Origin: Elusimicrobiota bacterium
GTDB taxonomy: Bacteria; Elusimicrobiota; UBA8919
DNA length: 64,000 bases
NCBI GenBank assembly: GCA_016218625.1
Contig: JACRDL010000065.1
Span: 1,521-65,520, forward strand
Direction of reading: 5' to 3'
Below, one piece after another: positions 4,949 to 51,556 of the stretch. The first letter of the stretch is position 1. Every line of letters begins with the position of its first letter. The position numbers and the translations under genes are program-made. The notes below the pieces were generated by a model that saw only the letters and a program-made list of their open reading frames with translations, did not search any database and was not told the DNA's origin.

Positions 4949-5093
4949 ACCACAGATTACACAGATTGACACAGATGACAACAAAGTTGTCATTGCGAGG
5001 GCGAAGCCCGTGGCAATCCCATCATTAAAACCGAGATTGCTTCGTTTCACTCGCAATGACGTTTCTTGTGAAAATCTCGTGAAATCTTGTGGT
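4949..5093. repeat. Repeat family A copy. A palindromic core (gtcattgcgagggcgaagcccgtggcaatc…gattgc…ctcgcaatgac) is flanked by [cacagat]n and [atcttgtg]n heptamer arrays.
   Basis: Near-identical copies at 24493-24627 and 30862-30995, and a diverged copy at 3684-3856. All are intergenic. Confidence 0.85.
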
Positions 5094-6062: not shown

Positions 6063-6658
6063 GGTTTTACCTCCGTTTTTTTGATTATTTTTTCTATCTC
6101 CTCAAAAGCATCCTTCATTATGTTTTCATATTTTATTTTTGTTTCTTCCTTAAAATCTGCATCGTCAATAAATTTCAGATTTATATCTATATTGCATTTC
6201 GCCGACTCAATCCCGGACCGCAACATTGATACGCCGCAGGAAACATCGCTTAATAGATTTTTATTGCCTATTTCCGAAAGACGCATCGCAATCGGAATTG
6301 CCTCAACCGATGTCTCAAAAATTTTACGGGGAACCAACATCGCATTTTTTAATGCATCCTGAATCTTTTCTTTGGTTTTTGTTTTATATGCTTCAGAAAG
6401 AGTTGTATAGGCATTTACATCCTCATCTATTAAAATTGAGAGTTGTGAGTTAAGAGTTGCGAGTTTGGTCAAAATATTTTTTATTTCATCCTGATGTGCT
6501 TCATAACCTTTTTTTTCAACCGTAAAATTTGCCGTCATCAAAAGGCAAGAGATACCAGTAGCAGAAACCAAAGCAGCGGCGCTCCCGCCGCCGGGTGCAG
6601 GCAGTTTTGCGGACAAATCGTCCAGATACTTTTTTATTGATGAATTGATATAGTCCAT
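6059..6658 (-). CDS. fchA: Cyclodeaminase/cyclohydrolase family protein, FchA-like methenyl-THF cyclohydrolase
   Basis: PAPGGGSAAALVSATG motif of the FTCD C-terminal-like family. Sits between folD and metF, as in acetogen methyl-branch operons. Confidence 0.7.
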   Translation of the reverse strand: MDYINSSIKKYLDDLSAKLPAPGGGSAAALVSATGISCLLMTANFTVEKKGYEAHQDEIKNILTKLATLNSQLSILIDEDVNAYTTLSEAYKTKTKEKIQDALKNAMLVPRKIFETSVEAIPIAMRLSEIGNKNLLSDVSCGVSMLRSGIESAKCNIDINLKFIDDADFKEETKIKYENIMKDAFEEIEKIIKKTEVKP

Positions 6659-8305: not shown

Positions 8306-8781
8306 TGTTTTACCTCACATAGAATAGTTTTTATAATTTCCGGAATTTTATTTCTGATTTCCTCCGAAAGTCCAATCTTCGGCTCAATCTCTTTCGGTTC
8401 AACACCGATAAAAACAATCTCTTTCGGAATAGTGCCAACTTTTTCGGCAATTTTTAATGCATCAATTATATTCAAATCATGTAAAGATGTTTTCTGCATT
8501 TCACTATTTCGAAATTGTGAAATTGTGAAATTGTGAAATTTGTAAATATCGCCATGAACTCCGCCGTTTTTTACAGCGTCAACTATTATTAGTTTGTCAA
8601 CATCCCTTAACGAAAGAATAACATCAAGTGCTGATGTCCCACCATCAATAAATTGGACATTGGACTTCGGACATTGGACTTCGGACAACTCTTTTATTAT
8701 ATGAACCCCAATCCCTTCATCACCCATTAAAATATTTCCGAAACCAACAACCGCAATTTTACAGTGTTCTGTATTTTCCAA
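8302..8781 (-). CDS. [NiFe] hydrogenase maturation endopeptidase (HycI/HyaD family)
   Basis: GDEGIGVHI motif. 159 aa. Sits immediately downstream of the hydrogenase large subunit. Confidence 0.75.
   Translation of the reverse strand: MENTEHCKIAVVGFGNILMGDEGIGVHIIKELSEVQCPKSNVQFIDGGTSALDVILSLRDVDKLIIVDAVKNGGVHGDIYKFHNFTISQFRNSEMQKTSLHDLNIIDALKIAEKVGTIPKEIVFIGVEPKEIEPKIGLSEEIRNKIPEIIKTILCEVKQ
8521..8552. repeat. Intragenic tandem heptamer array (gaaattg x4), in-frame in the hydrogenase maturation protease
   Basis: Encodes …HNFTISQFRNS…. A second array lies at 8655-8690 (ggacattggacttcggacattggacttcggaca). Confidence 0.75.
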
Positions 8782-11067: not shown

Positions 11068-11128
11068 TTTTTTGCTCCGATTATCCCGACGCTTAAGCGT
11101 CGGCTACTAATCCCTCGCATCGTTTTTT

Positions 11129-12872: not shown

Positions 12873-12968
12873 TGTCAAGATAAGCCACAGAATTTCACAG
12901 AAGTTCATAGAAGTTTTTTCTGTGTCATTTCTGTGTCTTTCTGTGGCGCCTTTCAAATTCCGATACCA
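12873..12968. repeat. Repeat family B copy. Structure: [cacagaa]n … [ttctgtg]n hairpin … cctttcaaattccgata.
   Basis: Copies are at 15925-16035 and three tandem copies at 41343-41641. Each lies immediately 3' of a stop codon (moeA, tupA, the methyltransferase). Confidence 0.85.
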
Positions 12969-12977
12969 CTAAATAAT

Positions 12978-15163: not shown

Positions 15164-15174
15164 TTTTTATATTC

Positions 15175-15212
15175 GCTACGCTCACCCCCGACTAAAGTCG
15201 GGGGCTACATTA
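15175..15212. repeat. Family F GC-stem hairpin (cgctcacccccgactaaagtcgggggctacatt) between tupB and tupC
   Basis: Related copies are inserted in CDSs at 37501-37540 and 56314-56350, and inside the 3684-3856 element. Confidence 0.7.
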
Positions 15213-15938
15213 TTGGCTCTTTTTCACAAATACTTGAAACAATAAATTAATTCCCAGCGCAATTATAATTAAAATCAAACCGAGTGCGAGTCCTAATATA
15301 AATTCACCCTTCGTTGTTTCAAACGCAATTGCTGTGGTAATATTTCTGGTATAGTTTTTAATATTACCTCCCAGCATCATTGAAATACCGACTTCCGAAA
15401 ATACCCGCCCGAAACCTACAATTACGGCAGATAAAATCATTATATGCAATTCTTTAGCAAGTGTTGATATTGACTGAAATTTGGTTGCCCCCAAGGCAAT
15501 CGCTGTAATGTATATTTTTTTATCCGCATTTTCCATGACTGATAAAACGAGCGCAGTAATTATCGGCGTTGCAAGGATAATCTGTCCTATAATCATTGCA
15601 TATGGCGTATATAAAAAGTTGAACCCGCCCAAAAAACCTTTTCTGCACAGCATTGAATAAACAACAAGACCTATTACAACAGTGGGTAAAGCCGTTAACG
15701 TATTAATAATAGTTATCAAAATTTGTCTGCCCTTAAACTGATTTATAGATATAATAAATACCAGCGACATGCTAAAAATTGCAGCAATTAAAACGGATGT
15801 ACCTGTTATCCAAAGCGATGTCCATGAGATTTGTAAAATGTTTCCGTCCAATGTAAATATCAAAAAAAATGCTTTCCCTAAACTATCAAAAAAATAACTC
15901 ATAATTTTTGTGTAATCAATTTGAACAAGATAAGCCAC
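15210..15938 (-). CDS. tupB: ABC transporter permease (tungstate/molybdate type)
   Basis: 242 aa, polytopic. Sits between the ATPase and binding-protein genes. Confidence 0.7.
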   Translation of the reverse strand: MAYLVQIDYTKIMSYFFDSLGKAFFLIFTLDGNILQISWTSLWITGTSVLIAAIFSMSLVFIISINQFKGRQILITIINTLTALPTVVIGLVVYSMLCRKGFLGGFNFLYTPYAMIIGQIILATPIITALVLSVMENADKKIYITAIALGATKFQSISTLAKELHIMILSAVIVGFGRVFSEVGISMMLGGNIKNYTRNITTAIAFETTKGEFILGLALGLILIIIALGINLLFQVFVKKSQ

Positions 15939-16035
15939 AGAATGTCACAGAATTTCACAGAAGTTTTTTCTGTGCTGTTTCGGCGACTGTCCCGCTTGCG
16001 GGATAATTCTGTGGCGCCTTTCAAATTCCGATGCT
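15925..16035. repeat. Repeat family B copy (supplies the last codons of tupA)
   Basis: caagataagccacagaatgtcacagaatttcacagaag…ttctgtggcgcctttcaaattccgatgc. Confidence 0.85.
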
Positions 16036-16866
16036 CTGAAATAATTGTTTGTTTTTTATCTTAAATTTATTTATCAGTTCTTTGGCCTCTTTTGAAGAAA
16101 GCCATCCGACGAATTGTTTTGCCTCATTATATTTTATCTGTTTATGTAAATTGGGATTGACAATTATGACGGAATACGGATTGTTTAAAATTTTATCTCC
16201 TTCAAAAAGCACACCCAAATCAATTTTATCTTCATATGAAATAAAAGTTGCCCTATCCGTCAAACAATACCCATTTTTTTCATTTGCAATAATAAGTGTC
16301 TCTCCCATTCCCTGTCCCGTTTCCACATACCATTGACCTTTCGGAGAAACATTACACCGATTCCATATTTCAAGTTCTTTTATATGTGTTCCCGAATTAT
16401 CTCCCCGGGATATAAATATAAGTTTTTCTTCAACGATTCTTTTAAACATATCAACAACCTTTTTTAAATTCCTAATTTTAGCAGCATTTTTTTCGGGTCC
16501 AACAATAATAAAATCATTATAAAATACCGGTTTTCTATCTATTCCAAAACCTTTTTTTACAAAATTTTCTTCCGCTAGCGGGTCATGGACCAAAACAATA
16601 TCAACATCGCCATTTTCGGCAAGTTTTAGCGCTTTACCGGACCCTACGGCAATGATTTGTATTTTGCTCCCGTATTTTTTTTCAAAAACAGGCAAAAGAA
16701 AATCCATTAGACCGGAATTTTCTACGCTGGTTGTTGTGGCCATCTTGAGAATTGGTAATTTAGGAGCGCAACCGATAAAGACAGTGAACAGTAAAGTCAA
16801 AACCCACCACTTCCTACTTCCGCGTCTGTTCTGCGTCTTGTTCCGCACCTGTTCCGTGTTTTTCAT
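16021..16866 (-). CDS. tupA: Tungstate-binding periplasmic protein
   Basis: Contains ATTTSVENSGL, the TTTS signature of TupA-type binding proteins, plus a signal peptide/TM. The last five codons and the stop are contributed by a copy of repeat family B. Confidence 0.7.
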   Translation of the reverse strand: MKNTEQVRNKTQNRRGSRKWWVLTLLFTVFIGCAPKLPILKMATTTSVENSGLMDFLLPVFEKKYGSKIQIIAVGSGKALKLAENGDVDIVLVHDPLAEENFVKKGFGIDRKPVFYNDFIIVGPEKNAAKIRNLKKVVDMFKRIVEEKLIFISRGDNSGTHIKELEIWNRCNVSPKGQWYVETGQGMGETLIIANEKNGYCLTDRATFISYEDKIDLGVLFEGDKILNNPYSVIIVNPNLHKQIKYNEAKQFVGWLSSKEAKELINKFKIKNKQLFQSIGI

Positions 16867-17441: not shown

Positions 17442-20198
17442 TTAGGTCTTTTCAAGCCGAACCGCACATACTTTCAATTCGGGAATTTTTGAAACAGGGT
17501 CAAGTGCAGTATTGCTGAATAGAACATTTGTTTTTGTTTCAGCAAAATGAAAACTCAAAGATATGGTGCCTTCCGGCGTGTTTTCGGTAATATGTACCCT
17601 GACACGAACATCGCCACGCCGAGAGACAACTTTGACAAAATTGCCGTCAATAAGATTCAATTTTTCAGCATCTAACGGATTTATCTCCAGCAGTTCTTCT
17701 GGCTTGAGTTTATTAAGCCCCTCAACTTTGCGTGTAAGTGTGCCTGTATGGTAGTGATACAATAACCGTTCTGTTGTAAGTATAAACGGGAACTCAGTAT
17801 CAGGTTGTTCTACTGATGGAGTATAGGAAACAGGCACAAACTTTCCTTTACCGCGGCTAAATCTATCTTTATGAAGAATATCTGTTCCCGGATGGTTGTC
17901 GTCGGGACAGGGCCACTTCAATGTCTTTTCTTTTAACCGTTTATATGAAATCCCTGCATAAATCGGCGCAACTTGGGCAATTTCGTCCATTATTTCAGAC
18001 GGCGTTTGGAATTCAAATCCGGGCTGATTCATTTTTTTTGCAAGTTCGCAAACAATCTGCCAGTCGGATTTTGATTCGCCCAGCGGCTTAATCGCCTTAT
18101 TTAAGAGTTGAACTCTTCTTTCGGTGTTGGTGTATGTGCCGTCTTTTTCAGCGAAACTGCACGCGGGAAGAACGATGTCGGCAAGTTTTGCCGTTTCTGT
18201 CAGAAACATATCCTGAACAACAAGAAACTCAAGTTCGGTCAATGAACACTCAGAGTGTTTTGAACACGGCTCGCTTAAAATAGGATTTTCTCCGATAATA
18301 TACATTGCTTTAATTTCGCGGATGTACGCTTTTTTGAACATCTCTGTCAGCGTTAATCCGGGATTGGAATTTAATTCTGTATTATAAAATTTCTCAAATT
18401 TTTGCTTTATTATTTCATCGGTTACAGATTGATATCCGGGAAATACATTCGGAAGCGCACCCATATCGCATGCACCCTGAACATTGTTCTGACCGCGCAG
18501 TGGATTTATTCCCGTTGACGGTTTGCCTATATTTCCTGTTAAAATCGCCATGTTGGAAACGGCGAAAACATTATCTGTTCCGTGCGAGTGCTGCGTTATG
18601 CCCATTCCGTAAAGAATCGTAGCGGGTTTTTCAGTCGCATATATTCTCGCCGCTTCTATAATCAAGTCCTTTTTAACGCCCGTAATTTTTTCTGTCTCAT
18701 CTAGATTTATCTCTTTCAAACTTTTTAGATACTCCTCGTAATTTTCGCATCTTTCGCGGATAAATTCCGCATCCTGCAGATTTTCATCAACAATAACTTT
18801 TGCGATGCTATTAAGCAAAGCAACATCGGTTCCTGGTTTATGATGCAAAGAAAGATATGCGAATTTACAGAGTTCAATTTTTTTGGGATTGATAATAATC
18901 AGTTTTGCACCGTTATCAACTGCTTGTTTTATTTTTAAACCTATTACGGGATGAGTGGATGTGGAATTTGAGCCGATTGACAGAATAGTTTTTGCAAACG
19001 CTATTTCAGAAATTGAATTGGTCATCGCACCGGAGCCGAGTGTTTTTGCAAGCCCTACAACGGTCGGGGCATGACAAAGACGGGCGCAATGGTCTATGTT
19101 GTTCGTCTTCAATACCGCGCGGGAAAATTTTTGTATGACATAATTTTCCTCGTTGGTGCACTTTGCCGACGACATAACGGCGATATCGCTGCCTTTATAT
19201 TTTGAAAACTTTTCGGCAATCAAACTTAATGCCTCGTTCCAATTTACAAATACAAAATCTGTATTTTTAAAACTTTTGTAGTCGCTTGATTTATCAAGCC
19301 CAATAAATTGGGCAACTACATCTTTTTTAACCAATGGTCTTGTAAGTCGTTCAGAATGGTGCACGAACTCTTTTATACCGAATCTACCTTTCACGCATAA
19401 TTGACCGTAATTTGTTGGACCATCAATGTCAGGAATTACTCTGACAATTTTTTCATCTCGGACTTCGGACTTCGGACTTCGGACTTCTAACTTAATTGAG
19501 CATCCGACGCCGCAGTAAGGACACAATGTTGTAATAACTTTATCCGGTTGAAACGATTCCTTAAAGTCCTTTTCCAAAAGCGCGCCGGTAGGACAGATAT
19601 CCACGCAGGCGCCGCAGAATTCACAATTTGAATCTTGGAGTTTTTTATTGAAAGAAGTGCCAGGTACCGATTTAATTCCGCGAAACATAAAATCTACCGC
19701 GGCGTTTTTTCTTAATTCTTCGCAGACACGAACGCATCTTCCGCAAAGAATGCACAAATTATAATCCCTGTTAAAAAACGGCTCTTCTTCGTATACGGTC
19801 AGGTTTTTATCTATAAAGGGCAAAGTTAATTTTTCAATTCCGAGATATGCGGCAATCTGCTGGAGTTCGCATCTCAAATTTTTATCACAAGTCGTGCATG
19901 TTTTATTATGTTCAGTTAAAATAAGTTCAAATACCTGCCGGCGCAAATTTTGAAGTTGTTCAGTATTTGTTCTGACAACCATCCCATCTTCAATATATGT
20001 AGTGCAAGCGGTTGGGCATCCTTTCATATTATCAATTTCCACAATACAAAGCCGACAAGCACCGTAGGGTTTAAGTCCGGGATAATAACATAAAGAGGGA
20101 ATATAAATATTATTTCTTTTTGCGGTTTCCAATACGGTTAAACCCCGTTCAATTTCTACTATTTTATCGTCAATGGTTAATTTTATTTTCATATTCAT
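17442..20198 (-). CDS. fdhA: Formate dehydrogenase alpha subunit (Mo/W-bis-PGD), Cys-type, with N-terminal [2Fe-2S]/[4Fe-4S] NuoG-like domains
   Basis: 918 aa. The active-site region IDHCARLCHAPTVVGL has Cys where selenoproteins have Sec, and there is no in-frame TGA. A molybdopterin oxidoreductase fold follows, with a ferredoxin-like N-terminus. Confidence 0.9.
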   Translation of the reverse strand: MNMKIKLTIDDKIVEIERGLTVLETAKRNNIYIPSLCYYPGLKPYGACRLCIVEIDNMKGCPTACTTYIEDGMVVRTNTEQLQNLRRQVFELILTEHNKTCTTCDKNLRCELQQIAAYLGIEKLTLPFIDKNLTVYEEEPFFNRDYNLCILCGRCVRVCEELRKNAAVDFMFRGIKSVPGTSFNKKLQDSNCEFCGACVDICPTGALLEKDFKESFQPDKVITTLCPYCGVGCSIKLEVRSPKSEVRDEKIVRVIPDIDGPTNYGQLCVKGRFGIKEFVHHSERLTRPLVKKDVVAQFIGLDKSSDYKSFKNTDFVFVNWNEALSLIAEKFSKYKGSDIAVMSSAKCTNEENYVIQKFSRAVLKTNNIDHCARLCHAPTVVGLAKTLGSGAMTNSISEIAFAKTILSIGSNSTSTHPVIGLKIKQAVDNGAKLIIINPKKIELCKFAYLSLHHKPGTDVALLNSIAKVIVDENLQDAEFIRERCENYEEYLKSLKEINLDETEKITGVKKDLIIEAARIYATEKPATILYGMGITQHSHGTDNVFAVSNMAILTGNIGKPSTGINPLRGQNNVQGACDMGALPNVFPGYQSVTDEIIKQKFEKFYNTELNSNPGLTLTEMFKKAYIREIKAMYIIGENPILSEPCSKHSECSLTELEFLVVQDMFLTETAKLADIVLPACSFAEKDGTYTNTERRVQLLNKAIKPLGESKSDWQIVCELAKKMNQPGFEFQTPSEIMDEIAQVAPIYAGISYKRLKEKTLKWPCPDDNHPGTDILHKDRFSRGKGKFVPVSYTPSVEQPDTEFPFILTTERLLYHYHTGTLTRKVEGLNKLKPEELLEINPLDAEKLNLIDGNFVKVVSRRGDVRVRVHITENTPEGTISLSFHFAETKTNVLFSNTALDPVSKIPELKVCAVRLEKT
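19458..19494. repeat. Intragenic tandem heptamer array (gacttcg x4), in-frame in fdhA
   Basis: Encodes KLEVRSPKSEVRDEK. Confidence 0.75.
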
Positions 20199-21825
20199 TA
20201 GAAAAATGTTTTAATGTTGATATTACAGGATTGGGTGCTGCCTGACCCAACCCGCACAGCGAGGTCAATTTAATTGTTTGGGATAGTTCTTTTAGTTTTT
20301 CAAGGTCTTCTTTTTTTGCATTACCGCTTGTAATTTTTTCTAAAATATTTAAGAGTTGTTTTGTACCGACTCTGCATGGTGTACATTTGCCGCAGGACTC
20401 ATTTGAACTAAATTCAACAAAATACTTACACATTTGTGTAATATCCATTTTCGTATCTACGATGACAATTCCGCCGGAACCCATAGAAGCACTTATTTCG
20501 GAAAGCGACTCAAAATCTACCGGTTTATCCAGATATTTTCCCGGAACGCAACCTCCCGTAGGCCCTCCAATAAATACCGCTTTCAATTTTTTTCCTTTCG
20601 GCAAACCGCCGCAGATGTTAAAAATTATCTTCTTTAATGAAATACCAAGCGGTAACTCAACAACGCCTGAATTATTTACTATCCCTGAAATTGAAAATAA
20701 TTTTGTTCCCTTACTTTTTTCAGTTCCATATTTATTTAACCAATCGGCACCGTTCAGAATAATCTGCGGTACATTGGCATATGTTTCAACATTATTTATA
20801 ACAGTCGGTTTATCTGATAACCCTTTTTCAACCGGATACGGCGGTCTAAAACGAGGTATCGCTCTTTTACCGGAAATCAATTCCAAAAGGGCTGTCTCTT
20901 CACCTGAAACATATCCACCGGCAATTGTTACAACAAAAATTTGAAAACAGAAATTTGAGCCTAAAATATTCTTTCCAAGAAAACCCAACTCGGTAGCATC
21001 CTTTATCGCTTTTTGTATTCTCTCAATAGATAAAGAGTATTCATTATTAATATAGATATAGCCAACTTTTGCACCGATAGCATAACCGGCAATAACCATT
21101 CCCTCAATTATAGAATGCGGGTCGCTTTCCAATAAAACCCTGTCCTTAAAAGTTCCGGGTTCGCCTTCTTCTGCATTACAAATAATATAGGCGATTGGGC
21201 GATTGGGCGGTTGGGCGATTGAGTGACGACATAGTTCCCATTTTATACCTGTCGGGAAACCTACACCGCCGCGACCGCGCAGACCGGATTTTTTTATTTC
21301 GTTGATAATTCCTTCCGGTGACATTTTTAGTGCTTTTTCTAAACCACTATACCCACCCTCTGCGATATAATGATAAATATTTTCCGGATTTATAAATCCG
21401 CACCGTCGTAAAATCCGTCTTACCTGATGTTTCATAAATGGTATCTCCAACAAGTTGGATATACCATCTATTGATTTTTCGCCGACCGTTCCGATAACAA
21501 GATTTTTCGGTATGCTGTTATGTAAAATATAATCAACTATTTTTGGAACATTTTCAACTGTTACATTTCCAAAACAAATTCTTGGGCCGCCGGGTTTTGA
21601 TACATCAATCAGCGGTTCCAAGTAGCAAAGCCCGATGCAACCGACAGGGATTATTTCAAAATTGATTTTTTTCTTTCTACACAGGGTGACTAAAGCCGTC
21701 TCTACATCGTCGGCACCGGCGGATTTTCCGCAGGTTGCCATTCCAACAAAAATAAGTATTTTTGATGGATTTGTAATTTTTTCCCACTCGTTTATTGCAG
21801 TTAGTTTTATTTTTTGAAATGTCAT
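20170..21825 (-). CDS. NADH-binding FMN/FeS subunit (NuoF/HydB-like)
   Basis: 551 aa with an N-terminal thioredoxin-like domain, an FMN/NADH-binding core and a C-terminal 4Fe-4S motif (ESCGKCTPCR). Confidence 0.85.
   Translation of the reverse strand: MTFQKIKLTAINEWEKITNPSKILIFVGMATCGKSAGADDVETALVTLCRKKKINFEIIPVGCIGLCYLEPLIDVSKPGGPRICFGNVTVENVPKIVDYILHNSIPKNLVIGTVGEKSIDGISNLLEIPFMKHQVRRILRRCGFINPENIYHYIAEGGYSGLEKALKMSPEGIINEIKKSGLRGRGGVGFPTGIKWELCRHSIAQPPNRPIAYIICNAEEGEPGTFKDRVLLESDPHSIIEGMVIAGYAIGAKVGYIYINNEYSLSIERIQKAIKDATELGFLGKNILGSNFCFQIFVVTIAGGYVSGEETALLELISGKRAIPRFRPPYPVEKGLSDKPTVINNVETYANVPQIILNGADWLNKYGTEKSKGTKLFSISGIVNNSGVVELPLGISLKKIIFNICGGLPKGKKLKAVFIGGPTGGCVPGKYLDKPVDFESLSEISASMGSGGIVIVDTKMDITQMCKYFVEFSSNESCGKCTPCRVGTKQLLNILEKITSGNAKKEDLEKLKELSQTIKLTSLCGLGQAAPNPVISTLKHFSNEYENKINH
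21189..21222. repeat. Intragenic tandem heptamer array (gggcgat x4), in-frame in the nuoF-like gene
   Basis: Encodes SIAQPPNRPIAY. Confidence 0.7.
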
Positions 21826-23158: not shown

Positions 23159-23231
23159 CAGGATTAAGGATTAAGGATTAAGCGGGCAGTGTCAAAAAAC
23201 TTAATCCTTACAACTTATCACTTAATCCTGC
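23159..23231. repeat. Family G element: [ggattaa]x3 … [ttaatcc]x3 inverted heptamer arrays between acsE and ackA
   Basis: ggattaaggattaaggattaag…cttaatccttacaacttatcacttaatcc. Confidence 0.7.
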
Positions 23232-24485: not shown

Positions 24486-24492
24486 CAAGGAT

Positions 24493-24627
24493 TAACACAG
24501 ATGACAACAAAGTTGTCATTGCGAGGGCGAAGCCCGTGGCAATCCCATCATTAAAACCGAGATTGCTTCACGGAGCAAGGTCCCGTTTTGACGGGATTCG
24601 CAATGACATTTCGGCGGCAATCCGTGG
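24493..24627. repeat. Repeat family A copy (with an internal extra hairpin insert)
   Basis: Matches 4971-5060 over most of its length. Lies between acsD and ackA. Confidence 0.85.
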
Positions 24628-27646: not shown

Positions 27647-30600
27647 TTATTCTCCGAATAGTTGCTTAAATATGTTTTTTTTCTCGCTTCCTTTTGGTTT
27701 ATCAGTCTCTGCTTTTTTCTGCTGTTCTTTTAATTGCCATTCTATCCGTTTCTTTAACATCTCGTTTTCTTTAATTACTGCTTGATACTTAATCTGCCAA
27801 TGTGATTCACCTAATAGTAACTGTTTTTTAAATGATGTTATTTCTTTTTCTAAATCGTCGGTTTTTTTAACCAAGCGTTTTTTTTGTTCTTCTATCTCGT
27901 GCTGGACAACTTTTTCTACTTCTTTGTCTTTGTATTGTAATTTCTGGTTAAATTCTTTTCTTTCATCTTCAATTCTCTTTTTCCATGTTTCAATTTCCTG
28001 CTCCAGCGTAGATTCTACTGATTTTTTTTCTTGCTGAATATTATATATCTTTTCGTTCAGGACTATTCGCTCTTCATTCATTTTTTTGTGCGTCATTTCC
28101 AGTTCGGTTCCAAGTTGCTGGAGCCGGCTTACAAGTTGCTGTTCTCTCTGTTCCATTTTTTCGATATATTTGTCTTTCTCTTCTTGCTGATTTTTAAGCA
28201 TTTGCTGAAATTTCTGTTTCTCAGCACCGACTTCTTCTTTCAACTTTACTGCTTGTAATTGCTCTGTCTGCAATTGTTCCTTAACCGCTTTGAGCATCTG
28301 CTCGCGTTTTTCTATTCCAATCTGTAAATTAGAATCTTTCTGTACTATTTCTGTTCCTAATTCGCCCTGCCGTTTTATGCCTTCTTCTATAATACACTTT
28401 AATCTGTTTATCTCAGACCTTAACTCATCTATTGTCCGCTTCTTCTCTTCAAACCCTTTTTGCCACCGCTCGTCGTTTTGCTTAAATTCCTGTACGAGTG
28501 ATGCTTTATCTCTTTCAATATCATCTATTTTGTTTTTCAAACTATTCATCTTTCGTTCATTCTCTTCTTTCTCTATTTGATATTGTGCTGCCTTTTCACG
28601 TTCAGCCAAAATTATGCCGCCTAACTTGTTTAATCCTTCTCCTGCTCTACTTATCTCATCTTGTAATTGCTTTATCTTCTGTTCAAAACCCTGAACGATA
28701 GAACCCTTTTCTCTTTCAAAGTTATCTTGTTCCTCTGATAACTCTTTTTTTAACTGCGAACTCTCTAACTCAACTGATTGTAATTTCTCGCCCAGCAGTT
28801 TTATTGCTTGCTCTTTTTTTTGCATCTCGGTTTGAAGTTGGAAATTCTGCTGTAACATCTCTGTTTCTAATAATTTTTTTTCTTCTATCTTGCTCTCTAA
28901 ATTTTTCTCTAATTCCGCCGTTTTATTTTTTAATATATTTATCTCTTCCTGTTTTTTTTGTAAATTGGTTTGCAGTTCTTTTTCATTAGTAATTCTACTC
29001 GCTTCCCATTTAATTTGTTTTTCTTCTAATTGTTTATTTAATTTTCTTATTTCGTCTTCCTTAAAATTAAACTTTGTAATCCACTGATTATTATTTTCAA
29101 GAACTTGTTTTTTTAGAATATTGATTTCCACATCTTTGTTTTCTATCGTTGTTTTAAATTCCTTTATATTTATCTCTTTTTCATCAATGATATGTTGTTC
29201 AGTGTTTATTTTTTGCTGAAACACTGCGATTTCATTTTGTAATTGATGTATTTGTGTTAATAGTTTCTCTTTTTCACCCTTGAATTCAGTTTTTAATTCG
29301 GTTGCGTTTAACTGTTCCGTTTGTAATTGGTCGCCTAATGCTTTGATTATCTGGTCTCGCTTCTGAATTTCAATCTTTATCTGTGCATCCTTCTGTAACA
29401 TCTGTGACCCTAACTCGCCTTTTTGTTTGATATTTTCCTCTATCGTTTTCTTCAATTTATTTATTTCATTCCGTAATTCCTCTATTGTTTGCTTCTTCTC
29501 TTCAAACCCTTTTCGCCACCGCTCATCGTTCTGCTTAATCTCTTGTAAAAGTGTCTCTTTTTCCTGCCCCATCTTCACTATCTGTCCAGTCAAACGGCTT
29601 ATTTCTTTCTCTTTTGTTTCATGCTCTACACACCATTGCGAGACCTTCTGCACTAACTCCAAATCTAATTCTGCCCGTTGTTCGTCCAGTTTTTTTATCT
29701 TTACTTGCCAATCTCTGTTATGTTCTTCTAATGTTTTATTAAAGGTCTCACCCGCTTCTTTTATCTGTTTTTTTAATGTTTCTATCTCCAGTTCCTTTTG
29801 TTGAATCGTCGCCTGAAATTGAACCGTAAACTCGGCCTTCTCCTTTGTAGATTTCTCTCGCTCTTTAAAAATTAGTGCGTCTAACTTGTTTATGTCCGCT
29901 TTCTCACGCTCTAACTTTTCTTGTAATTGTTTCTCTCGCTCTTCAAAACTTTGTATAAGTGAACTTTTTTCTTTCTCAAATGAAGCCCGTAATTGTTTCT
30001 CTTTTTCATCGAATTTCTGGATCTTTTCGTTGAACTCTTTTTTTAACTGCGGACTCTCTAACTCAACTAATTGTAGTTTCTCGCCCAGCAATTTTATCGC
30101 TTGCTCTTTTTTCTGCAACTCGGTTTGAAGTTGGAATTTCTGCTGCAACATTTCCGTCTCTAACACGCTTTTTTCTTTTATTATAGCACCGAGATTTTTA
30201 TGTGTTTCGTTTAATTCTTTCCGCAGTTCATCAATTTCTTGCTGTCTGTTTTGTAGACCTTCCTGCCAGCGGGTTTCTTTTTGAACAAATTTTTCAATAA
30301 GTGAGTCCTTCTCTTTTTCAAAATTATCCTGCAACTCTGTTTCACGAATTCTGAGTTTTCCTAATGATTCAACCCGTATTTCTTCCCGCTGTCTATCCAG
30401 TTTTCTAATTTCGCCTTCTTTTAATTGAAATACATCCTGCCAGTTTTTGTTGTTCTCTAAAATCTGATTTTTCAGATTCTGGATTTCATTATTTTTATGT
30501 TTTATATTCTCCTCTAATTCTTCTATCTGTTGTCTGAATGGTATCTGTATGTTTTTAATTTCTGTTTCCGACTCCGCCAGTTTTTGGTTTATTTGAATCT

Positions 30601-30826
30601 GTTGCTCTTTAATTTTTTGAATCTCATCTGCCCAATGTGTTAGTTTTTCTTCTAATTCTTTAACTATATCTGACAGTATCCTTTTAATATTGGTGGCAAC
30701 TGCAAAGGCACGAATATCAGAATCTGTTTTCCCGATTATTCTTTCTTCAGTGTAACCAAAACCAGTTTTCATTTTGGTTTTTATTTCTGATAATAAAGCG
30801 TCTATTTCGTCCTTATATTTTTCCAT
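27647..30826 (-). CDS. Giant coiled-coil protein (1059 aa), rich in E/K/Q and internally duplicated, function unknown
   Basis: Heptad-rich sequence throughout, with no TM segments or recognisable enzymatic motifs. Two long modules are duplicated (IKQNDERWRKGFEEKKQTIEELRNEINKLK… versus FKQNDERWQKGFEEKKRTIDELRSEINRLK…; LETEMLQQKFQLQTELQKKEQAIKLLGEKLQLVELESPQLKKEF versus LETEMLQQNFQLQTEMQKKEQAIKLLGEKLQSVELESSQLKKEL). A GGGGGA SD-like motif lies upstream of the ATG. Confidence 0.8.
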   Translation of the reverse strand: MEKYKDEIDALLSEIKTKMKTGFGYTEERIIGKTDSDIRAFAVATNIKRILSDIVKELEEKLTHWADEIQKIKEQQIQINQKLAESETEIKNIQIPFRQQIEELEENIKHKNNEIQNLKNQILENNKNWQDVFQLKEGEIRKLDRQREEIRVESLGKLRIRETELQDNFEKEKDSLIEKFVQKETRWQEGLQNRQQEIDELRKELNETHKNLGAIIKEKSVLETEMLQQKFQLQTELQKKEQAIKLLGEKLQLVELESPQLKKEFNEKIQKFDEKEKQLRASFEKEKSSLIQSFEEREKQLQEKLEREKADINKLDALIFKEREKSTKEKAEFTVQFQATIQQKELEIETLKKQIKEAGETFNKTLEEHNRDWQVKIKKLDEQRAELDLELVQKVSQWCVEHETKEKEISRLTGQIVKMGQEKETLLQEIKQNDERWRKGFEEKKQTIEELRNEINKLKKTIEENIKQKGELGSQMLQKDAQIKIEIQKRDQIIKALGDQLQTEQLNATELKTEFKGEKEKLLTQIHQLQNEIAVFQQKINTEQHIIDEKEINIKEFKTTIENKDVEINILKKQVLENNNQWITKFNFKEDEIRKLNKQLEEKQIKWEASRITNEKELQTNLQKKQEEINILKNKTAELEKNLESKIEEKKLLETEMLQQNFQLQTEMQKKEQAIKLLGEKLQSVELESSQLKKELSEEQDNFEREKGSIVQGFEQKIKQLQDEISRAGEGLNKLGGIILAEREKAAQYQIEKEENERKMNSLKNKIDDIERDKASLVQEFKQNDERWQKGFEEKKRTIDELRSEINRLKCIIEEGIKRQGELGTEIVQKDSNLQIGIEKREQMLKAVKEQLQTEQLQAVKLKEEVGAEKQKFQQMLKNQQEEKDKYIEKMEQREQQLVSRLQQLGTELEMTHKKMNEERIVLNEKIYNIQQEKKSVESTLEQEIETWKKRIEDERKEFNQKLQYKDKEVEKVVQHEIEEQKKRLVKKTDDLEKEITSFKKQLLLGESHWQIKYQAVIKENEMLKKRIEWQLKEQQKKAETDKPKGSEKKNIFKQLFGE

Positions 30827-30861: not shown

Positions 30862-30995
30862 CCACAGATTTCACGGATTTTCACAGATGACAACAAAGTT
30901 GTCATTGCGAGGGCAAAAGCCCGTGGCAATCCCATCATTAAAACCAAGATTGCTTCACTTCGTTCGCAATGACATTTCTTGTGTAATCTTGTGGT
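30862..30995. repeat. Repeat family A copy
   Basis: Matches 4951-5093, including the flanking cacagat arrays. Lies between the response regulator and the coiled-coil gene. Confidence 0.85.
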
Positions 30996-32748: not shown

Positions 32749-33618
32749 TTATTCTGAAAAATACTTTGATAACTTTTCCTTTAGTAAGTCATATAATCTT
32801 TTATATGGAGTTGTATTTTGAGAATTGAAAAACTCTAATAATAATTTTAGAGTTTTACCTTCTCTGAAAATCACTTTAATAATACCCTCTTCCCACAATT
32901 TTTCATTTTCCAAAATTTTACGCCAATATCTCAATTCTAATTCTTTTAATTCTTCAAAACTTTTAAGGGGTTCTTTGTCGCAATTAACTTCTGGAATTTC
33001 TGGCAAATCTTTTTTCCATTGTTTCAACCATAAAAGCATGTCGTCCCACATTTTTGGATTTTTTAGGTATTCAAAAAATTCTTCTCCATAAAATAATTTA
33101 ACTTCAATATCATAAAAGGAACTTAATCTTGTTATCTCTTGTTCATAAAAATTTTTATTTTTTGAAAGATCTGGGTCAATAAAATACATAATTCCTGTCA
33201 ATTGTTTTCCATGTTTTTTATAAAGAATTTCTAATTTTGTTTCAAAATTTGAAATTTGACCCCGTTTTTTAGTTGAGTCGTGGTCATCTCTTACTTTCTG
33301 TTCAACAAAATAAATTTTATTTAACTTGCTAAAATATTGGTCTATTGATAAATTTTCGCCTTTTTCATTAGTAATATTCTTATCAAGTATTGTATAATCC
33401 CAATCTCTTAAAATTTTTTTAATTAATTCTTCAAGTGCATCGCCAAATCTAATTTCGTGTGACTGTAACAAATTCTGAAGAACTTTTGTTCCCGGTTTTG
33501 TAGGTCTGAATAAACCAATAAATCGTTCTGGCCAATCTGCAATCTTTTTTAACAACTCATTCTTTTCTTTACTAAACAAATGCTCATTCAAAATTTTAGC
33601 AAAATTTTCATAATTCAT
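32749..33618 (-). CDS. Hypothetical protein, candidate restriction endonuclease partnering the adjacent methyltransferase
   Basis: 289 aa with no recognisable family. A possible PD-(D/E)xK-like D…(E/V)EQK arrangement is present (SIDQYF…YFVEQKVRDD). It lies on the same strand 18 bp downstream of a Type II-like MTase, forming a two-gene islet between acsB and acsC. Confidence 0.35.
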   Translation of the reverse strand: MNYENFAKILNEHLFSKEKNELLKKIADWPERFIGLFRPTKPGTKVLQNLLQSHEIRFGDALEELIKKILRDWDYTILDKNITNEKGENLSIDQYFSKLNKIYFVEQKVRDDHDSTKKRGQISNFETKLEILYKKHGKQLTGIMYFIDPDLSKNKNFYEQEITRLSSFYDIEVKLFYGEEFFEYLKNPKMWDDMLLWLKQWKKDLPEIPEVNCDKEPLKSFEELKELELRYWRKILENEKLWEEGIIKVIFREGKTLKLLLEFFNSQNTTPYKRLYDLLKEKLSKYFSE

Positions 33619-33635
33619 AATAAATCACCCCTCAA

Positions 33636-34535
33636 CTATGTTTTTACTAATATTTTATTTTCACTCTTTCTACTAACAAACAAGTCATCATCTAATTCTT
33701 TTAATCGTTTATTTATAACTTCAATATATTTATGTTCTTTTTCAATCATTATGTAATTTCTTCCAAATTTTTTGGCTATATATCCTGTCGTGCCTGTACC
33801 CGCAAATGGGTCTAACACAATATCGCCTTCTTTACTCGTTGCTAAAATAATTCTGGTAAGTAACTTTTCTGGCTTTTGCGTGGAATGAACTTTTTGACCG
33901 TTTTCATCTTTTATTCTTTCATCACCGGTACAAAGTGAAAAATACCAATCACTTCTCATCTGTTTCCCGTTATTCATTTCTTTCATCAATTTATAATTAA
34001 ACGTATATTTTTTGGAATATTTGTCCTTTGTCGCCCAAATAAGTGTTTCATGTGCATTAGTAAAACGAACCCCACGAAAATTTGGCATCGGATTTGTTTT
34101 TATCCATACAACATCATTTAATATCCAAAATCCTAAATCTTGCATCACTTTTCCAACTCTAAAAATATTATGATATGCACCAATAACCCAGATTGTACCT
34201 GTTTTTTTGAGAATCCGTTGACATTCATATAACCAATTTTTGATAAATTCATCATATTCCTCAAAACTGCCAAATTTATCCCAATTATCATTAACTCCAT
34301 TAACAATTGAATTATTTGGTCTTATTAGAATATTTTGTAACTGTAAATTGTACGGTGGGTCGGCAAAAATCAAATCAATAGAATTATCAGGAATTGCTTT
34401 CATTACTTCAGTACAATTACCTTCAATAATTTTATTTGTGAAATCACTAACATTCTTTGTAAATGTTTTTGCATCGTAAATCACAATATTACTTTTCATT
34501 AACAACGGCTTTTTTCCTTTTTTCTTTTTATACAT
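33636..34535 (-). CDS. DNA methyltransferase, beta-class (N6-adenine or N4-cytosine)
   Basis: The DPPYN motif IV precedes the FAGTGTTG motif I, which is the circularly permuted beta-class order. 299 aa. Confidence 0.85.
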
Positions 34536-36854: not shown

Positions 36855-38177
36855 TTAAATTAAAATTTCGCTGTATTCTTTTTCGGCAAATTCGCTTTTA
36901 TATTGCTTAATTAACGGTATTATCTTTGCAAAATCAAAATTATTCCCCATCATAACCTCTTTTATTGACGAGACATTTATTTTTTTCTTAAGAAGCAAAC
37001 CGAAAATGCCCGACTTATCAACATCTTTTACAAGAACAAACCCGACAATTTTATTATCTTTAAGAATGATTTTCCTATAAATGCTACTTGCAATATTTTT
37101 TCTGACCAGTATTTCATATTCCTCACCTTTCGGTTTTGTTATTCCGCAAGAAATTGTCGGAAGTTCAAAAAATTCTACAGAGTTCATACTAATCGAGCCG
37201 TCATATTTTATGTTTTTTTCGACCATATTAAACCCCGCGATTTTTCCCTGAATAACGGCATTTGGCCAGAGTGCATTTATTGTACTTTCCCCTGTAATCA
37301 AATCGTTTGCCTGTGCGACATCGCCGGCAGCATAAATATCGGAAACAGTTGTTCTTAAATAATCATTTACAACAATTCCCTTCTCGGTTTTAATTTCAGT
37401 GTTTTTTACAAGTTCCATATTTGCCTGAACGCCTTTGCCGATGATTACAATTTGGCAATCAATTTTTTCGCCATTTTCAAGAACAACTCCGGAAACACTA
37501 TTCGCTTCGCTCACCCCCGAATGAATTCGGGGGCTACATTTGTTGCCTAAAATCTCTTTTGCAGCAAGACCGGTTAGAACCTTAATCCCTTCCTTTTCAA
37601 TTTTATCCTGAATAAATTTTGCGCCCTCTTCGTCAAGCATCTGCGAAAGAACATGCTTTGACTTAACAACAACTGTTACTTTTATTCCCCGTTTGTGCAG
37701 AGCATATGCCGCGCGAAGACCTATGAGTCCTCCGCCGAGCATAACTGCCGCCTTGGAATTTTGCAGTCGTTTTTCTATTTTTCTTGCATCATCTATGTTC
37801 CTTAACCCAAATACCCCTTCCTTTTCAATCCCCGGAATTTTTTCCATCTTTGAACGCGAACCGGTTGCAATTAAAAGTTTGTCAAATGTCAAAACACTAC
37901 CATCAGAAAGTTTAACCTTTTTGTCCGATGACATAACCGCATCAACCTTTTTTCCAATAATTGCATTGACATTGAATTTCCTGTAAAAATCATCTTCCCT
38001 GTATTTAAGTTTTCCCTCGGGGATTATTCCCGCAAGATAGTATGAAAGCATGCATCTTGAATAAACCGGATAATTTTCGTCGGAAACGACTGTGATTTTT
38101 CCTTCCATATCAATTGACCTTATCGCTTCAACACAAGAAATACCGGCGGCACTTGCACCGATTATCAAATAATTCAT
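36855..38177 (-). CDS. FAD/NAD(P)-binding pyridine nucleotide-disulfide oxidoreductase, CODH-associated
   Basis: N-terminal GxGxxG (IIGASAAG) and a second NAD-binding motif (VMLGGGLIGL). 440 aa. Sits downstream of cooS-cooF. Carries an in-frame palindrome insertion (family F). Confidence 0.75.
   Translation of the reverse strand: MNYLIIGASAAGISCVEAIRSIDMEGKITVVSDENYPVYSRCMLSYYLAGIIPEGKLKYREDDFYRKFNVNAIIGKKVDAVMSSDKKVKLSDGSVLTFDKLLIATGSRSKMEKIPGIEKEGVFGLRNIDDARKIEKRLQNSKAAVMLGGGLIGLRAAYALHKRGIKVTVVVKSKHVLSQMLDEEGAKFIQDKIEKEGIKVLTGLAAKEILGNKCSPRIHSGVSEANSVSGVVLENGEKIDCQIVIIGKGVQANMELVKNTEIKTEKGIVVNDYLRTTVSDIYAAGDVAQANDLITGESTINALWPNAVIQGKIAGFNMVEKNIKYDGSISMNSVEFFELPTISCGITKPKGEEYEILVRKNIASSIYRKIILKDNKIVGFVLVKDVDKSGIFGLLLKKKINVSSIKEVMMGNNFDFAKIIPLIKQYKSEFAEKEYSEILI
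37501..37540. repeat. Family F hairpin inserted in-frame in the FAD oxidoreductase gene (encodes CSPRIHSGVSEA)
   Basis: ttcgcttcgctcacccccgaatgaattcgggggctacatt. Confidence 0.8.
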
Positions 38178-41342: not shown

Positions 41343-41641
41343 GACCGTTATTTGTCAAGATAAGCCACAGAATGTCACAGAATTTCACAGAATTTTTTTC
41401 TGTGTTCTTTTTCTGTGTGATTCTGTGGCGCTTTTGAAATTCCAATACTACAAGATAGCCACAGAATGTCACAGAATTTCACAGAAGTTTTTTCTGTGTT
41501 CTTTTTCTGTGTGGTTCTGTGGCGCCTTTCAAATTCCGATACTCCAAGATAGCCACAGAATGTCACAGAATTACACAGAATTTTTTTCTGTGTTCTTTTT
41601 CTGTGTGATTCTGTGGCGCTTTTGAAATTCCGATGCTGTAA
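41343..41641. repeat. Three directly abutting tandem copies of repeat family B (about 96-100 bp each)
   Basis: Unit starts lie near 41343, 41451 and 41546, with 90% or more identity between units. There are no unique spacers. Confidence 0.9.
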
Positions 41642-41645
41642 AATA

Positions 41646-48493: not shown

Positions 48494-48506
48494 TTCCCCC
48501 CCATTA

Positions 48507-51546: not shown

Positions 51547-51556
51547 AAAGGTTTTA

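Follow-up and report, generated by a model that had tools for sequence, protein, structure and literature searches.

The usual view of microsatellites whose unit is not a triplet is that essential genes purge them, or that they act only as on/off switches. Tandem heptamers are represented in heterocystous cyanobacteria by the STRRs, which have fixed units with the consensus CCCCAGT (STRR1), TTGGTCA (STRR2) and CAACAGT (STRR3); those of Mazel et al. in 1990 were reportedly intergenic and cyanobacterial, and Elhai et al. in 2008 are said to have found small dispersed repeats embedded in STRR heptamers. The Rickettsia palindromic elements (RPEs) are palindromes of 100–150 bp that always add length and that Ogata et al. 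in 2000, a study cited in PMC1779305, reportedly found in frame in protein-coding genes.

In many prokaryotes, no class of long simple-sequence repeats (SSRs) is commoner than the heptanucleotides, for which slippage of the polymerase has been proposed as the cause (Mrazek et al. 2007, as summarized in PMC4679880). Xanthomonas and Nostoc are reported to favor four units (Rehm et al. 2015, PMC4692102). According to published surveys of such repeats (LSSRs), most of those in coding regions are multiples of three, and ORFs contain fewer of the G-rich heptamers than expected (PMC4679880, PMC4692102). Direct repeats of TAACTGA occur in marine Beggiatoaceae and some cyanobacteria (MacGregor 2015, PMC4679880). 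At contingency loci, for example the tetra- and heptanucleotide SSRs of Haemophilus, a non-triplet SSR lies within a gene and a change of one unit shifts the frame (PMC2651432, PMC3315296).

Tandem arrays in the window

The window analyzed here is a 64-kb stretch of an Elusimicrobia metagenome-assembled genome (MAG). Its arrays have the properties of LSSRs, being head-to-tail units of 5–11 nt in at least three copies and above chance, as judged by Tandem Repeats Finder (TRF) and an in-house scan set against codon-block shuffles. The scan found seven arrays of period 7, five of period 8 and four of period 10, and none of periods 4, 5, 6 or 9, while the shuffles gave at most 0.4 array per period. 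The enrichment of 7-mer periodicity anticipated in a preliminary description of this DNA is thus present, period-specific and far beyond chance. The period-7/8 excess is also found in 124 kb of related Elusimicrobiota MAGs, which hold one period-6 array, and is absent from two outgroup loci (distant Omnitrophota and Actinomycetota loci, the sole matches of the FdhA search of genome contigs). Because the frame-neutral periods 6 and 9 are essentially absent, the period is fixed by the mutational process and not by selection. Of the single genome-wide seeding mechanism proposed earlier, a lineage-wide propensity for non-triplet tandem arrays stands, given the excess in relatives and its absence from the outgroups; the idea of three to five heptamers added in 21-nt blocks fits only FdhA.

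Inside CDSs of core enzymes lie 8–10 of 13 arrays. Every array is open in frame in an intact ORF, in-gene lengths by TRF are 27–39 nt, and Pfam identifies host ORFs as HycI, Complex1_51K, Lar_N, Amidohydro_1 and TMEM260-like/TPR. The arrays within genes are the following:

6436–6465, minus strand: FTCD_C array, degenerate AACTCNC × 4.3, encoding KLATLNSQLSI
8491–8546, minus strand: HycI element b, 8-mer array AATTTCAC × 3.75 (8511–8540) plus inverted tail GTGAAAT, encoding YKFHNFTISQFRNSEMQ
8652–8690, minus strand: HycI array a, alternating GTCCGAA and GTCCAAT, encoding SEVQCPKSNVQF
19458–19494, minus strand: FdhA array, sense GTCCGAA × 4.3, encoding EVRSPKSEVR
21189–21222, minus strand: NuoF-like array, 8-mer CAATCGCC × 4, encoding SIAQPPNRPIA
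52653–52689, minus strand: LarA-like array, ACTTACT/ACTTACC × 5, encoding DLLLTTYHLPLTK
53767–53805, minus strand: amidohydrolase array, CTCGTCC/CTCGTCT × 4.7–5, encoding FLSSLVSRPPSLV
63679–63712, minus strand: TMEM260-like/TPR array a, degenerate CTACTCR × 4.6, 72% matches, encoding LLLTTRYLQLA
63813–63842, minus strand: TMEM260-like/TPR array b, 8-mer CTCACTTA × 3.75, 100% matches
63864–63890, minus strand: TMEM260-like/TPR array c, CAGTTAG × 3.9

All the arrays listed in the preliminary description exist in frame inside CDSs as it had stated, with small coordinate offsets (by TRF 8511–8540, 8652–8687, 21190–21221, 52653–52688, 53767–53802, 63679–63710, 63813–63842 and 63864–63890); the FTCD_C array had been missed. 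Three of the units, taken there to be heptamers throughout, are octamers (GAAATTGT at 8511–8540, GGCGATTG at 21190–21221 and AGTGAGTA at 63813–63842). The array totals are not the multiples of 21 nt that had been claimed, and a net gain of 21 nt over homologues is seen in FdhA alone. Nor does each array have a heptamer of its own: gacttcg (FdhA) and ggacttc (HycI) are rotations of sense GTCCGAA, which is the exception in occurring at two loci (FdhA and HycI-a) when the majority of units, by exact search, occur at one locus only in the 64 kb. In HycI-a, GTCCGAA is a window-specific variant, the relative L086 having GTCCAAA there, and chance coincidences expected for unit sharing are ~0.045 among ~105 unit pairs. 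The LarA and TMEM260-a units are near-identical.

Net insertions and overwritten loops

The segments that bear arrays vary in length across each protein family, and the inserts in the NuoF loop, the FdhA hairpin and HycI site a differ among relatives. Net insertions are found only in FdhA (+7 aa) and the NuoF-like protein (+5 aa). The FdhA host ORF encodes 918 aa on the minus strand with the array in frame, and TRF reports it on the plus strand as TCGGACT × 4.3 with 100% matches (19458–19487(94)). The additional 7 aa (21 nt) lie in the hairpin after the CPYCGVGC cluster motif, and the Fe4S4 domain spreads 57 aa over 50 Pfam profile positions. The insertion is missing from 39 other aligned homologues; the only protein sharing it, P0001, is the database copy of the window's own gene, deposited with a start two residues later. 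The codon alignment was made against L003, L006 and L008. The NuoF-like array lies in the loop before the (I/V)CNA(D/E)EG motif, with its net gain counted relative to PDB chain 9n5u_B. In the same loop, L006 carries a CTCACCT × 10.6 array and L003 an in-frame ACGAAT/ATTCGT palindrome.

That relatives would lack 7-aa blocks, as the preliminary description expected, is true of FdhA; in LarA, the amidohydrolase, FTCD_C and HycI, the array overwrites a variable native loop with little or no change in length and with key residues kept. In the amidohydrolase, it stands in place of the native FLSKIKNEKPELI with no change in length, L007 and L010 keeping the native sequence, and the segment is indel-variable across the family (a 6-aa gap in 4f0r). 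FTCD_C has no net insertion relative to the Pfam profile, and its orthologue in L006 carries a perfect AACTCTC × 4.6 where the window copy is degenerate. The TMEM260-like N-terminal domain likewise shows no net insertion relative to its Pfam profile. In array c of this gene, a stop codon is avoided by substitution, with AAG at the two points where an unbroken repeat would have put a TAG in frame.

HycI arrays and related hairpins

HycI sites a and b were compared between the window, L086, L087 and L003, genomes whose genes are ~74–77% identical in DNA. Array a has a period of 14 in 2.4 copies, equal to 5.1 heptamers, and orthologous arrays occupy the site in all three relatives. The units are lineage-specific and the codon count is equal in three of the four genomes; the arrays have thus evolved in concert at constant length. 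Site a is hypervariable among Elusimicrobiota HycI proteins, and relatives share the array peptide QCPKSNVQ.

At HycI-b, the array and its inverted tail form a hairpin (DNA fold z = −3.8), and unit and inverted tail co-vary in L087 and L003. Hairpin structure is also present in two intergenic features:

23159–23230, no strand assigned: intergenic hairpin, left arm AGGATTA × 3.3, right arm with inverted TAATCCT
48506–48552, plus strand: intergenic HycI-b-type element, ATTTCACA × 3.4 plus AGTGAAATGCAGAA

The element at 48506–48552 lies upstream of a nucleoside-transporter gene, and the orthologous site in L007 also has a copy. It shares the array plus a 14-nt tail with HycI-b, and the unit common to both, ATTTCAC(A), resembles the CACAGAATTT 10-mer family. 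This is the only unit for which the proposed re-use in intergenic families was borne out, the others forming no intergenic arrays in the window by exact search. In FdhA, LarA and the amidohydrolase, the array lacks an inverted partner and is less prone to fold than its shuffled controls (z > +1); no inverted partner was found for the NuoF and FTCD_C arrays either.

The LarA patch and a case of slippage

In LarA, the array replaces the native EKLTVKYKIPSEK with length unchanged. At the patch, the window and L009 agree exactly over 47 nt, in genes that are 68.6% identical overall; their next-longest exact run is 14 nt, and the flanks differ at synonymous sites. Several relatives share the array peptide DLLLTTYHLPLTK, and the array alleles are patchily scattered over two clades of the neighbor-joining gene tree. 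This identity and the patchy tree cannot come from vertical descent and slippage; an account of them also needs transfer or repeated identical acquisition. In searches of viral and metagenome collections, the array sequences gave 33, 8 and 32 matches, all to unrelated long satellites and none in LarA; the exact 33-nt LarA pattern recurred within long (ACTTACY)n satellites on 32 metagenome contigs that are unrelated. Because unrelated satellites carry it, an identical two-variant heptamer pattern is weak evidence of common descent. Shared peptides such as those of LarA and HycI had been named beforehand as a refuting outcome; the phenomenon is still present, and such peptides mean that some arrays are old or shared.

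The LarA arrays of L008 and L053 have decayed by point mutation. In a second assembly of the L007 species, a close relative and not the window's own genome, LarA is split into P0362 (109 aa, ending ...TTYHLLK*) and P0363. Deleting one heptamer in silico from the L007 array reproduces P0362 exactly. The gene is thus split just as loss of one heptamer predicts, which indicates that copy number varies; judging from the protein sequences, this one case is slippage of LarA copy number, and the polymorphism predicted earlier is therefore found in a relative.

Origin and persistence of the arrays

The preferred reading, with a probability of about 0.6, is that the arrays are translated long-unit SSRs confined by selection to permissive loops. 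The Elusimicrobiota lineage would generate SSRs with 7- or 8-nt units (~4–5 copies) at a high rate genome-wide. Those arising in genes would survive only where any net change in length leaves the frame intact, none of the three sense-strand phases of the unit contains a stop codon, the site is a surface loop that tolerates indels, and key residues are retained or restored; they would then be translated into protein. Like live microsatellites, they would gain or lose single units by strand slippage, giving frameshifted null alleles, while successive gains and losses or unit-to-unit conversion would homogenize the array and selection on the protein would hold its total length constant. A new patch may form when one template-switch or repair-type event overwrites ~10–40 nt of native sequence with tandem units, whose source in at least some cases would be another array of the same genome and not unit-by-unit growth from a local seed. 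A one-step origin of this kind is favored because stepwise growth from one copy needs frameshifted intermediates. The unit common to FdhA and HycI-a counts for sharing between loci. Growth from a local seed was rejected as the general origin, the unit not being in the native FdhA, LarA and amidohydrolase sites of relatives. What speaks against the SSR reading is the same-length overwriting in three or four genes, which simple slippage does not predict and which requires a deletion-plus-insertion event or later compensating deletions.

The content of the window points to no responsible enzyme for SSR formation. A resemblance of some antisense units to splice sites or Shine–Dalgarno sequences was dropped, as it is probably a by-product of the stop-free requirement.

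It is possible, if doubtful, that the arrays are instead copies or single arms of tiny non-autonomous mobile hairpin elements with tandem 7–10-nt arms, comparable to the cyanobacterial small dispersed repeats or to in-frame RPEs. Such elements would enter or convert particular sites, among them one and the same site in orthologues across genera, and the tandem structure would belong to the element and not stem from local slippage. The array and tail that the HycI-b hairpin shares with 48506–48552 agree with such elements, as do the intergenic hairpins at 23159–23230 and of the D1 family, whose 10-mers number three direct and three inverted, the periodic palindrome in the L003 NuoF loop, the unit common to FdhA and HycI-a, and the exact, patchily distributed LarA match between divergent genes. 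Tiny dispersed palindromes, D5 and D6, also lie in frame in window CDSs, and L007 and L009, though from different clades, have D5 inserted at the identical codon of LarA. However, arrays without an inverted partner are found in five of the host genes, most units occur once only, target-site duplications and conserved termini are not visible, and no transposase, RAYT or reverse transcriptase was found among the window ORFs. The recurrence of the LarA pattern in unrelated contigs also counts against mobility, and concerted evolution and a −1 unit allele are ordinary SSR dynamics. The 47-nt LarA match, its sharp boundaries and the patchy tree suggest another route, a dedicated "patch-writing" in which single-stranded tandem 7–8-nt templates replace ~30–45 nt with length unchanged. 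It is quite improbable that such a process operates, that its templates are other arrays or a dedicated RNA or DNA template copied or annealed into the chromosome, and that patches could in this way recur at, or move between, the same orthologous site across genera. If true, patch-writing would be nature's counterpart of oligonucleotide- or retron-type recombineering, with core enzymes as its targets.

That the arrays are functional, either as contingency (phase-variation) switches or as factor-bound cis-acting RNA or DNA motifs, is very unlikely. In favor are the −1 unit null allele of LarA in a natural population, the persistence of arrays at orthologous sites in genomes whose genes share only ~74–77% DNA identity, the greater conservation of the LarA patch than of its flanks and the compensatory change in the HycI-b hairpin. 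The hosts, however, are core Wood–Ljungdahl, hydrogenase and housekeeping enzymes and not surface or restriction genes, the arrays sit mid-gene, Rfam has zero matches in the window, and some lineages show decay by point mutation (LarA of L008 and L053, FTCD_C of the window). A single binding factor would not account for units that change from one array to the next. It is extremely improbable that the arrays stem from artefacts of sequencing or assembly, which the preliminary description named as what would undo the claim, or of binning. The window does come from a MAG, short tandem repeats can mis-assemble, and the sole polymorphism was inferred from another short-read assembly. But arrays at orthologous codons are present in GCA_040757695.1, GCA_041694835.1, GCA_002402375.1, GCA_043802785.1 and contigs from ENA and JGI, and every array keeps the reading frame of a conserved enzyme. 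Because independent assemblies, from different projects, have these orthologous arrays, the arrays are not assembly artefacts.

Significance

On the best reading, the arrays are an unusual form of simple-sequence repeat and not a new kind of element. Non-triplet arrays would here be stably built into enzyme loops of central metabolism in an uncultivated lineage, where they persist across genera and evolve in concert. They amount to a natural loop-replacement experiment that shows where FdhA, NuoF, HycI, LarA and other enzymes are permissive. They would also supply variation in protein surfaces and, repeatedly, null alleles, and annotation pipelines will mistake these for pseudogenes or split genes. 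The LarA pattern, if it reflects real patch transfer, would be an undescribed route for moving ~40-nt segments between divergent genomes. In practice, the arrays should serve as sensitive strain markers and as a warning for Elusimicrobiota MAG assembly and gene calling.

Comparison with known repeat systems

The likeness to cyanobacterial STRRs drawn in the preliminary description holds as an analogy only. Both involve tandem heptamers and an association with very small hairpin-forming dispersed elements. No unit matches an STRR consensus exactly in any rotation on either strand, the best having one mismatch, which is the chance rate; in addition, the host is an Elusimicrobia MAG and most arrays lie in CDSs. 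The TAACTGA repeats are likewise dispersed heptamer arrays, of 2–6 or more units, with a stop-free minority in ORFs and suspected mobility. That system has a single dominant unit, placed mostly just upstream of start codons, with its ORF copies at protein ends, whereas the window has many units, mid-protein and in loops. Its closest unit, TAACTGC (63864–63890, in a CDS), is one base off and within chance, and membership was rejected. A Beggiatoaceae or cyanobacterial origin was likewise discarded, the window being from an Elusimicrobia MAG and no unit matching.

Contingency loci resemble the arrays in being non-triplet SSRs within genes, and one off allele was seen (LarA of the L007 species). 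Their copy numbers are far higher, their usual place is close to the 5′ end of genes for surface, LPS or restriction functions, and selection maintains them for switching; the arrays have 4–5 copies and lie mid-gene in central-metabolism enzymes (FdhA, HycI, NuoF-like, LarA-like, amidohydrolase and FTCD_C), and were not classed as phase-variable. Assignment to the diversity-generating retroelements was also rejected, as the window holds neither a reverse transcriptase nor a second copy of any array with A-specific changes. RPEs offer a parallel as short selfish repeats tolerated in frame at permissive surface sites, a description that fits D5, D6 and HycI-b; unlike them, the pure direct arrays are ~30–37 nt, lack structure and mostly replace sequence. 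With prokaryotic LSSRs (5–11-nt units), the arrays share tandem 7-nt units, about four copies, lineage-specific abundance and slippage as the proposed driver. They differ from those in the LSSR surveys in that they lie mostly in the CDSs of core enzymes, include 8-mers and in many cases overwrite native sequence at constant length.

Period-Specific Arrays in the Window

The 64-kb window has a G+C content of about 38% and carries nearly all of its genes on the - strand. By Pfam, most of its ORFs form a Wood–Ljungdahl/hydrogenase/C1 cluster that includes FTHFS, FolD, MTHFR, FTCD_C, CODH/ACS subunits, a [NiFe] hydrogenase with HycI, and FdhA with NuoE- and NuoF-like partners; housekeeping genes including recA are also present. 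The window's ORFs include no transposase, RAYT or reverse transcriptase. Tandem arrays were counted period by period, with codon-block shuffles as the control.

Tandem arrays by period
Window (64 kb): period 7, 7; period 8, 5; period 10, 4; periods 4, 5, 6 and 9, 0
Codon-block shuffles: ≤0.4 at each of periods 7, 8, 10 and 4, 5, 6, 9
Related Elusimicrobiota loci (124 kb): period 7, 14; period 8, 7; period 10, 1; periods 4, 5, 6 and 9, 1 (period 6)
Outgroup loci, Omnitrophota and Actinomycetota (27.6 kb): 0 at every period scanned

The window's four period-10 arrays are a separate intergenic hairpin family. Since the window and its relatives are rich in periods 7 and 8 whereas shuffles and outgroups are not, the excess is real, period-specific and lineage-wide; the 7-mer enrichment predicted in the preliminary description is thus borne out (7 period-7 arrays vs. 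≤0.4). That description had placed in-frame heptamer arrays inside enzyme genes, each with its own 7-mer and a length in multiples of 21 nt. All of the named arrays are present and open in frame, at slightly shifted coordinates, but three are octamers, measured lengths are 27–39 nt rather than multiples of 21 nt, and GTCCGAA is both the FdhA unit and one of HycI's two units. The arrays discussed by position are:

19458-19494, as first placed: FdhA, TCGGACT x4.3 on the + strand (100% matches); sense (-) strand (GTCCGAA)n within a 918-aa ORF, translated EVRSPKSEVR
52653-52689 (-): LarA patch, ACTTACT/ACTTACC x5
53767-53805 (-): amidohydrolase array
63864-63890: CAGTTAG array
8511-8540, 21190-21221 and 63813-63842: octamer arrays

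Insertions and Length-Neutral Replacements

In FdhA, the array reads IKLEVR[SPKSEVR]DEKIVRV against the native IKLEIKNEKI(I/V)R(V/I) of relatives, a net gain of 7 aa by which the Fe4S4 domain also exceeds its Pfam profile. The insertion is present in the database copy of this protein (P0001) and in 0/39 other aligned homologues, including the three closest relatives (71–76% identity), as expected if relatives lacked the block. At exactly this hairpin site, a relative's FdhA (P0003; L005 about 750-845; 74% identity) carries an unrelated 30-aa insert, NEFVEYPDFSRDVNDANSNRIVADASASEYRE, with a CCGACGC...GCGTCGG hairpin. The NuoF-like protein has SIAQPPNRPIA where 9n5u_B has a shorter loop (net about +5 aa); the same loop holds a CTCACCT x10.6 array in the related locus L006. 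In L003 (3244-3338), this loop has an in-frame insertion of ~90 nt, a periodic palindrome of four ACGAAT followed by four ATTCGT.

Other arrays leave protein length nearly unchanged:

LarA-like: DLLLTTYHLPLTK array peptide vs. EKLTVKYKIPSEK native; net 0; L, Y, P and K retained
Amidohydrolase: FLSSLVSRPPSLV array peptide vs. FLSKIKNEKPELI native; net 0; F, L, S, P and L retained
FTCD_C: KLATLNSQLSI vs. array-type KLSTLNSQLSTL in L006; net 0 against relatives and Pfam profile
TMEM260-like domain: three arrays; net 0 against Pfam profile
HycI (two sites): within 1–3 residues of typical family length

No native, array-free FTCD_C was found among the relatives compared. In all three genes with native comparators (FdhA, LarA and amidohydrolase), the array unit is absent from relatives' native DNA, and simple expansion of a local seed is therefore not supported.

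Array positions coincide with length-variable segments of each protein family. For instance, the amidohydrolase loop is indel-variable across its family, and the FdhA hairpin, NuoF loop and HycI site a bear different inserts in different relatives. On the sense strand, all CDS units but one are free of stops in three phases; in the opposite orientation, about half contain stops. The exception is CAGTTAG, strict repetition of which would place TAG in every third unit; the array has AAG at exactly the two expected TAG positions. These features provide evidence that the arrays are probably translated and filtered by selection. Another in-frame non-triplet period, an 11-nt repeat (TTCCGCGTCTG x3.5, 79% matches; 16818-16856), lies within the first codons of a PBP-like solute-binding protein gene.

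Concerted Evolution and Shared Units

HycI arrays a and b occupy the same codons in four genomes (the window, L086, L087 and L003) whose genes are 74–85% identical in DNA, so that here, unlike in FdhA, relatives do have the block; codon count is equal in three of the four. Site a is (CCGAAGT CCAATGT)x2 in the window, (CCAAAGT CCAATGT)x2 in L086, CAAAAGT x3 in L087 and CCTTCTA-type units in L003. Site b is AATTTCAC x3 in the window and L086, AAATTTCC x4 in L087, and AATTTCCA x2 then AATTTGGA x2 in L003. Because every equivalent unit within a lineage bears the same substitution, the arrays are evidently in concerted evolution under a length constraint. At site b, unit and inverted tail pair and have changed together (tail GTGAAAT in the window, GGAAATT in L087 and L003), and the site folds significantly better than shuffles in all three (z = -3.8 to -5.5); by the same comparison, no structure was found in the FdhA, LarA and amidohydrolase arrays. 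FTCD_C parallels HycI: the window's array is degenerate, whereas that of L006 is a perfect AACTCTC x4.6.

The FdhA array occurs in this genome only, and its unit is exactly the form of the HycI-a unit peculiar to the window (GTCCGAA, where L086 has GTCCAAA); 0.045 unit coincidences are expected by chance among about 105 unit pairs. HycI-b and an intergenic element (48506-48552), a copy of which is conserved in L007, have in common the array and a 14-nt tail, AGTGAAATGCAGAA. The proposed intergenic re-use of units holds for ATTTCAC(A), while other units show no demonstrable re-use within the window.

Slippage and Patch Anomaly in LarA

One ENA assembly in the 90%-identity cluster of L007 LarA has the gene split into 109-aa and 338-aa products. 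In-silico loss of one heptamer from the L007 array gives the exact 109-aa product, ending ...TTYHLLK*. This match, which agrees with the predicted copy-number polymorphism, is the most direct evidence (one case) that copy number varies naturally by single units to give null alleles.

LarA array alleles occur in one clade (window, L007 and L008) and in another (L009 and L053), interleaved with native alleles that, away from the patch, reach 90% identity to the window. The window and L009 genes are 68.6% identical, and yet they agree at every base over the 47 nt of the patch, the next-longest exact run being 14 nt; L007, L053 and L008 differ from the window's patch by 1, 4 and 5 bases. Judged from these sequences, the pattern cannot be the product of vertical descent; the alternatives are very short patch transfer between orthologues or repeated identical acquisition. 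A metagenome scan tempers the patch inference: the 33-nt LarA pattern turns up in 32 contigs with no relation to it, always as part of long (ACTTACY)n satellites and never in a LarA gene, and thus a two-variant heptamer pattern can recur by chance. The identical site, phase and boundaries of the LarA patches still need explaining.

Directly upstream of LarA in L008 (9966-9990) lies an intergenic TAAGTTG/TAAGTGG x3.5 array, the reverse complement of CTTACAA/CTTACCA and an inverted partner ~300 nt from the in-gene array. These numerous satellites are in G+C-rich marine contigs, some with telomere-like CCCTAA repeats and therefore probably eukaryotic. Both satellite flanks have 20–40-nt direct duplications of the unique sequence beside them, a hint that the organisms concerned insert or duplicate such repeats by a mechanism of their own.

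Other Repeats and ORFs

Dispersed repeats and ORFs of the window include:

37498-37541, 56307-56350 and 15169-15212: D5, a 44-nt palindrome (...GCTCACCCCCGAATGAATTCGGGGGCTACATTT), in frame within two oxidoreductase genes
40652-40697, 51556-51601 and 62736-62781: D6, a 46-nt perfect-arm palindrome (ACCCTGTTAGAAGTATCG...CTTCTAACAGGGT), two of three copies within CDSs (CbiA/ParA-like and TMEM260-like/TPR genes)
12883-12977, 15933-16027 and 41356-41645: D1, five copies (three head-to-tail, 94-nt period) of three direct then three inverted CACAGAAKKT 10-mers, together a long hairpin between conserved flanking sequences; no Rfam match
4964-5043, 24490-24569 and 30876-30955: D4, an 80-nt repeat (two copies 99% identical) preceded by CACAGATTGA-type 9–10-mers
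27647-30826: 1059-aa ORF with internal 176–300-nt repeats and the window's most extreme AT and GC skew; no Pfam match
33636-34535: N6/N4 DNA methyltransferase adjoining a 289-aa ORF (32749-33618; no Pfam match), both between CODH/ACS genes; they may be a restriction-modification pair

Among relatives, D5 occurs in the LarA of L007 and L009 alone, both times at the same codon, in full in L007 (about 11080-11125; +11 aa) and hairpin-deleted in L009 (+5 aa), and it is intergenic in L010 (4483-4530). Its behaviour resembles that of a very small mobile element common to these genomes.

Origin of the Arrays

The simplest account that fits these facts is a lineage-specific long-unit SSR process of period 7/8. 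Such a process would yield the arrays; in genes, those that keep the frame, lack stops, fall in tolerant loops and spare conserved residues would survive, and survivors would be kept up by slippage and conversion. Each patch would go back to one overwrite event, for which another array sometimes served as template. The main rival is a genuine miniature mobile element, which better fits the hairpin-type arrays and the D5/D6 palindromes but fits the pure direct arrays less well. Functional phase variation is possible, although the host genes match it poorly. A sequencing or assembly artefact, named beforehand as a refuting outcome, is excluded because independent assemblies have orthologous arrays.

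A literature search found no published description of such arrays in Elusimicrobia. According to a published summary, heptanucleotides are the commonest of the long SSRs in many prokaryotes, polymerase slippage has been proposed as their cause, and in-gene repeats usually have multiple-of-three units (PMC4679880). In Xanthomonas and Nostoc, G-rich heptamers favour arrays of four and are under-represented within ORFs (PMC4692102), and the TAACTGA repeats of Beggiatoaceae are in few ORFs, mostly at protein ends (PMC4679880). Long heptanucleotide SSRs are thus known; what is notable here is that the arrays sit in CDSs of core enzymes, overwrite sequence without changing its length, and persist over the long term at orthologous sites while evolving in concert, and that the LarA patch is anomalous.
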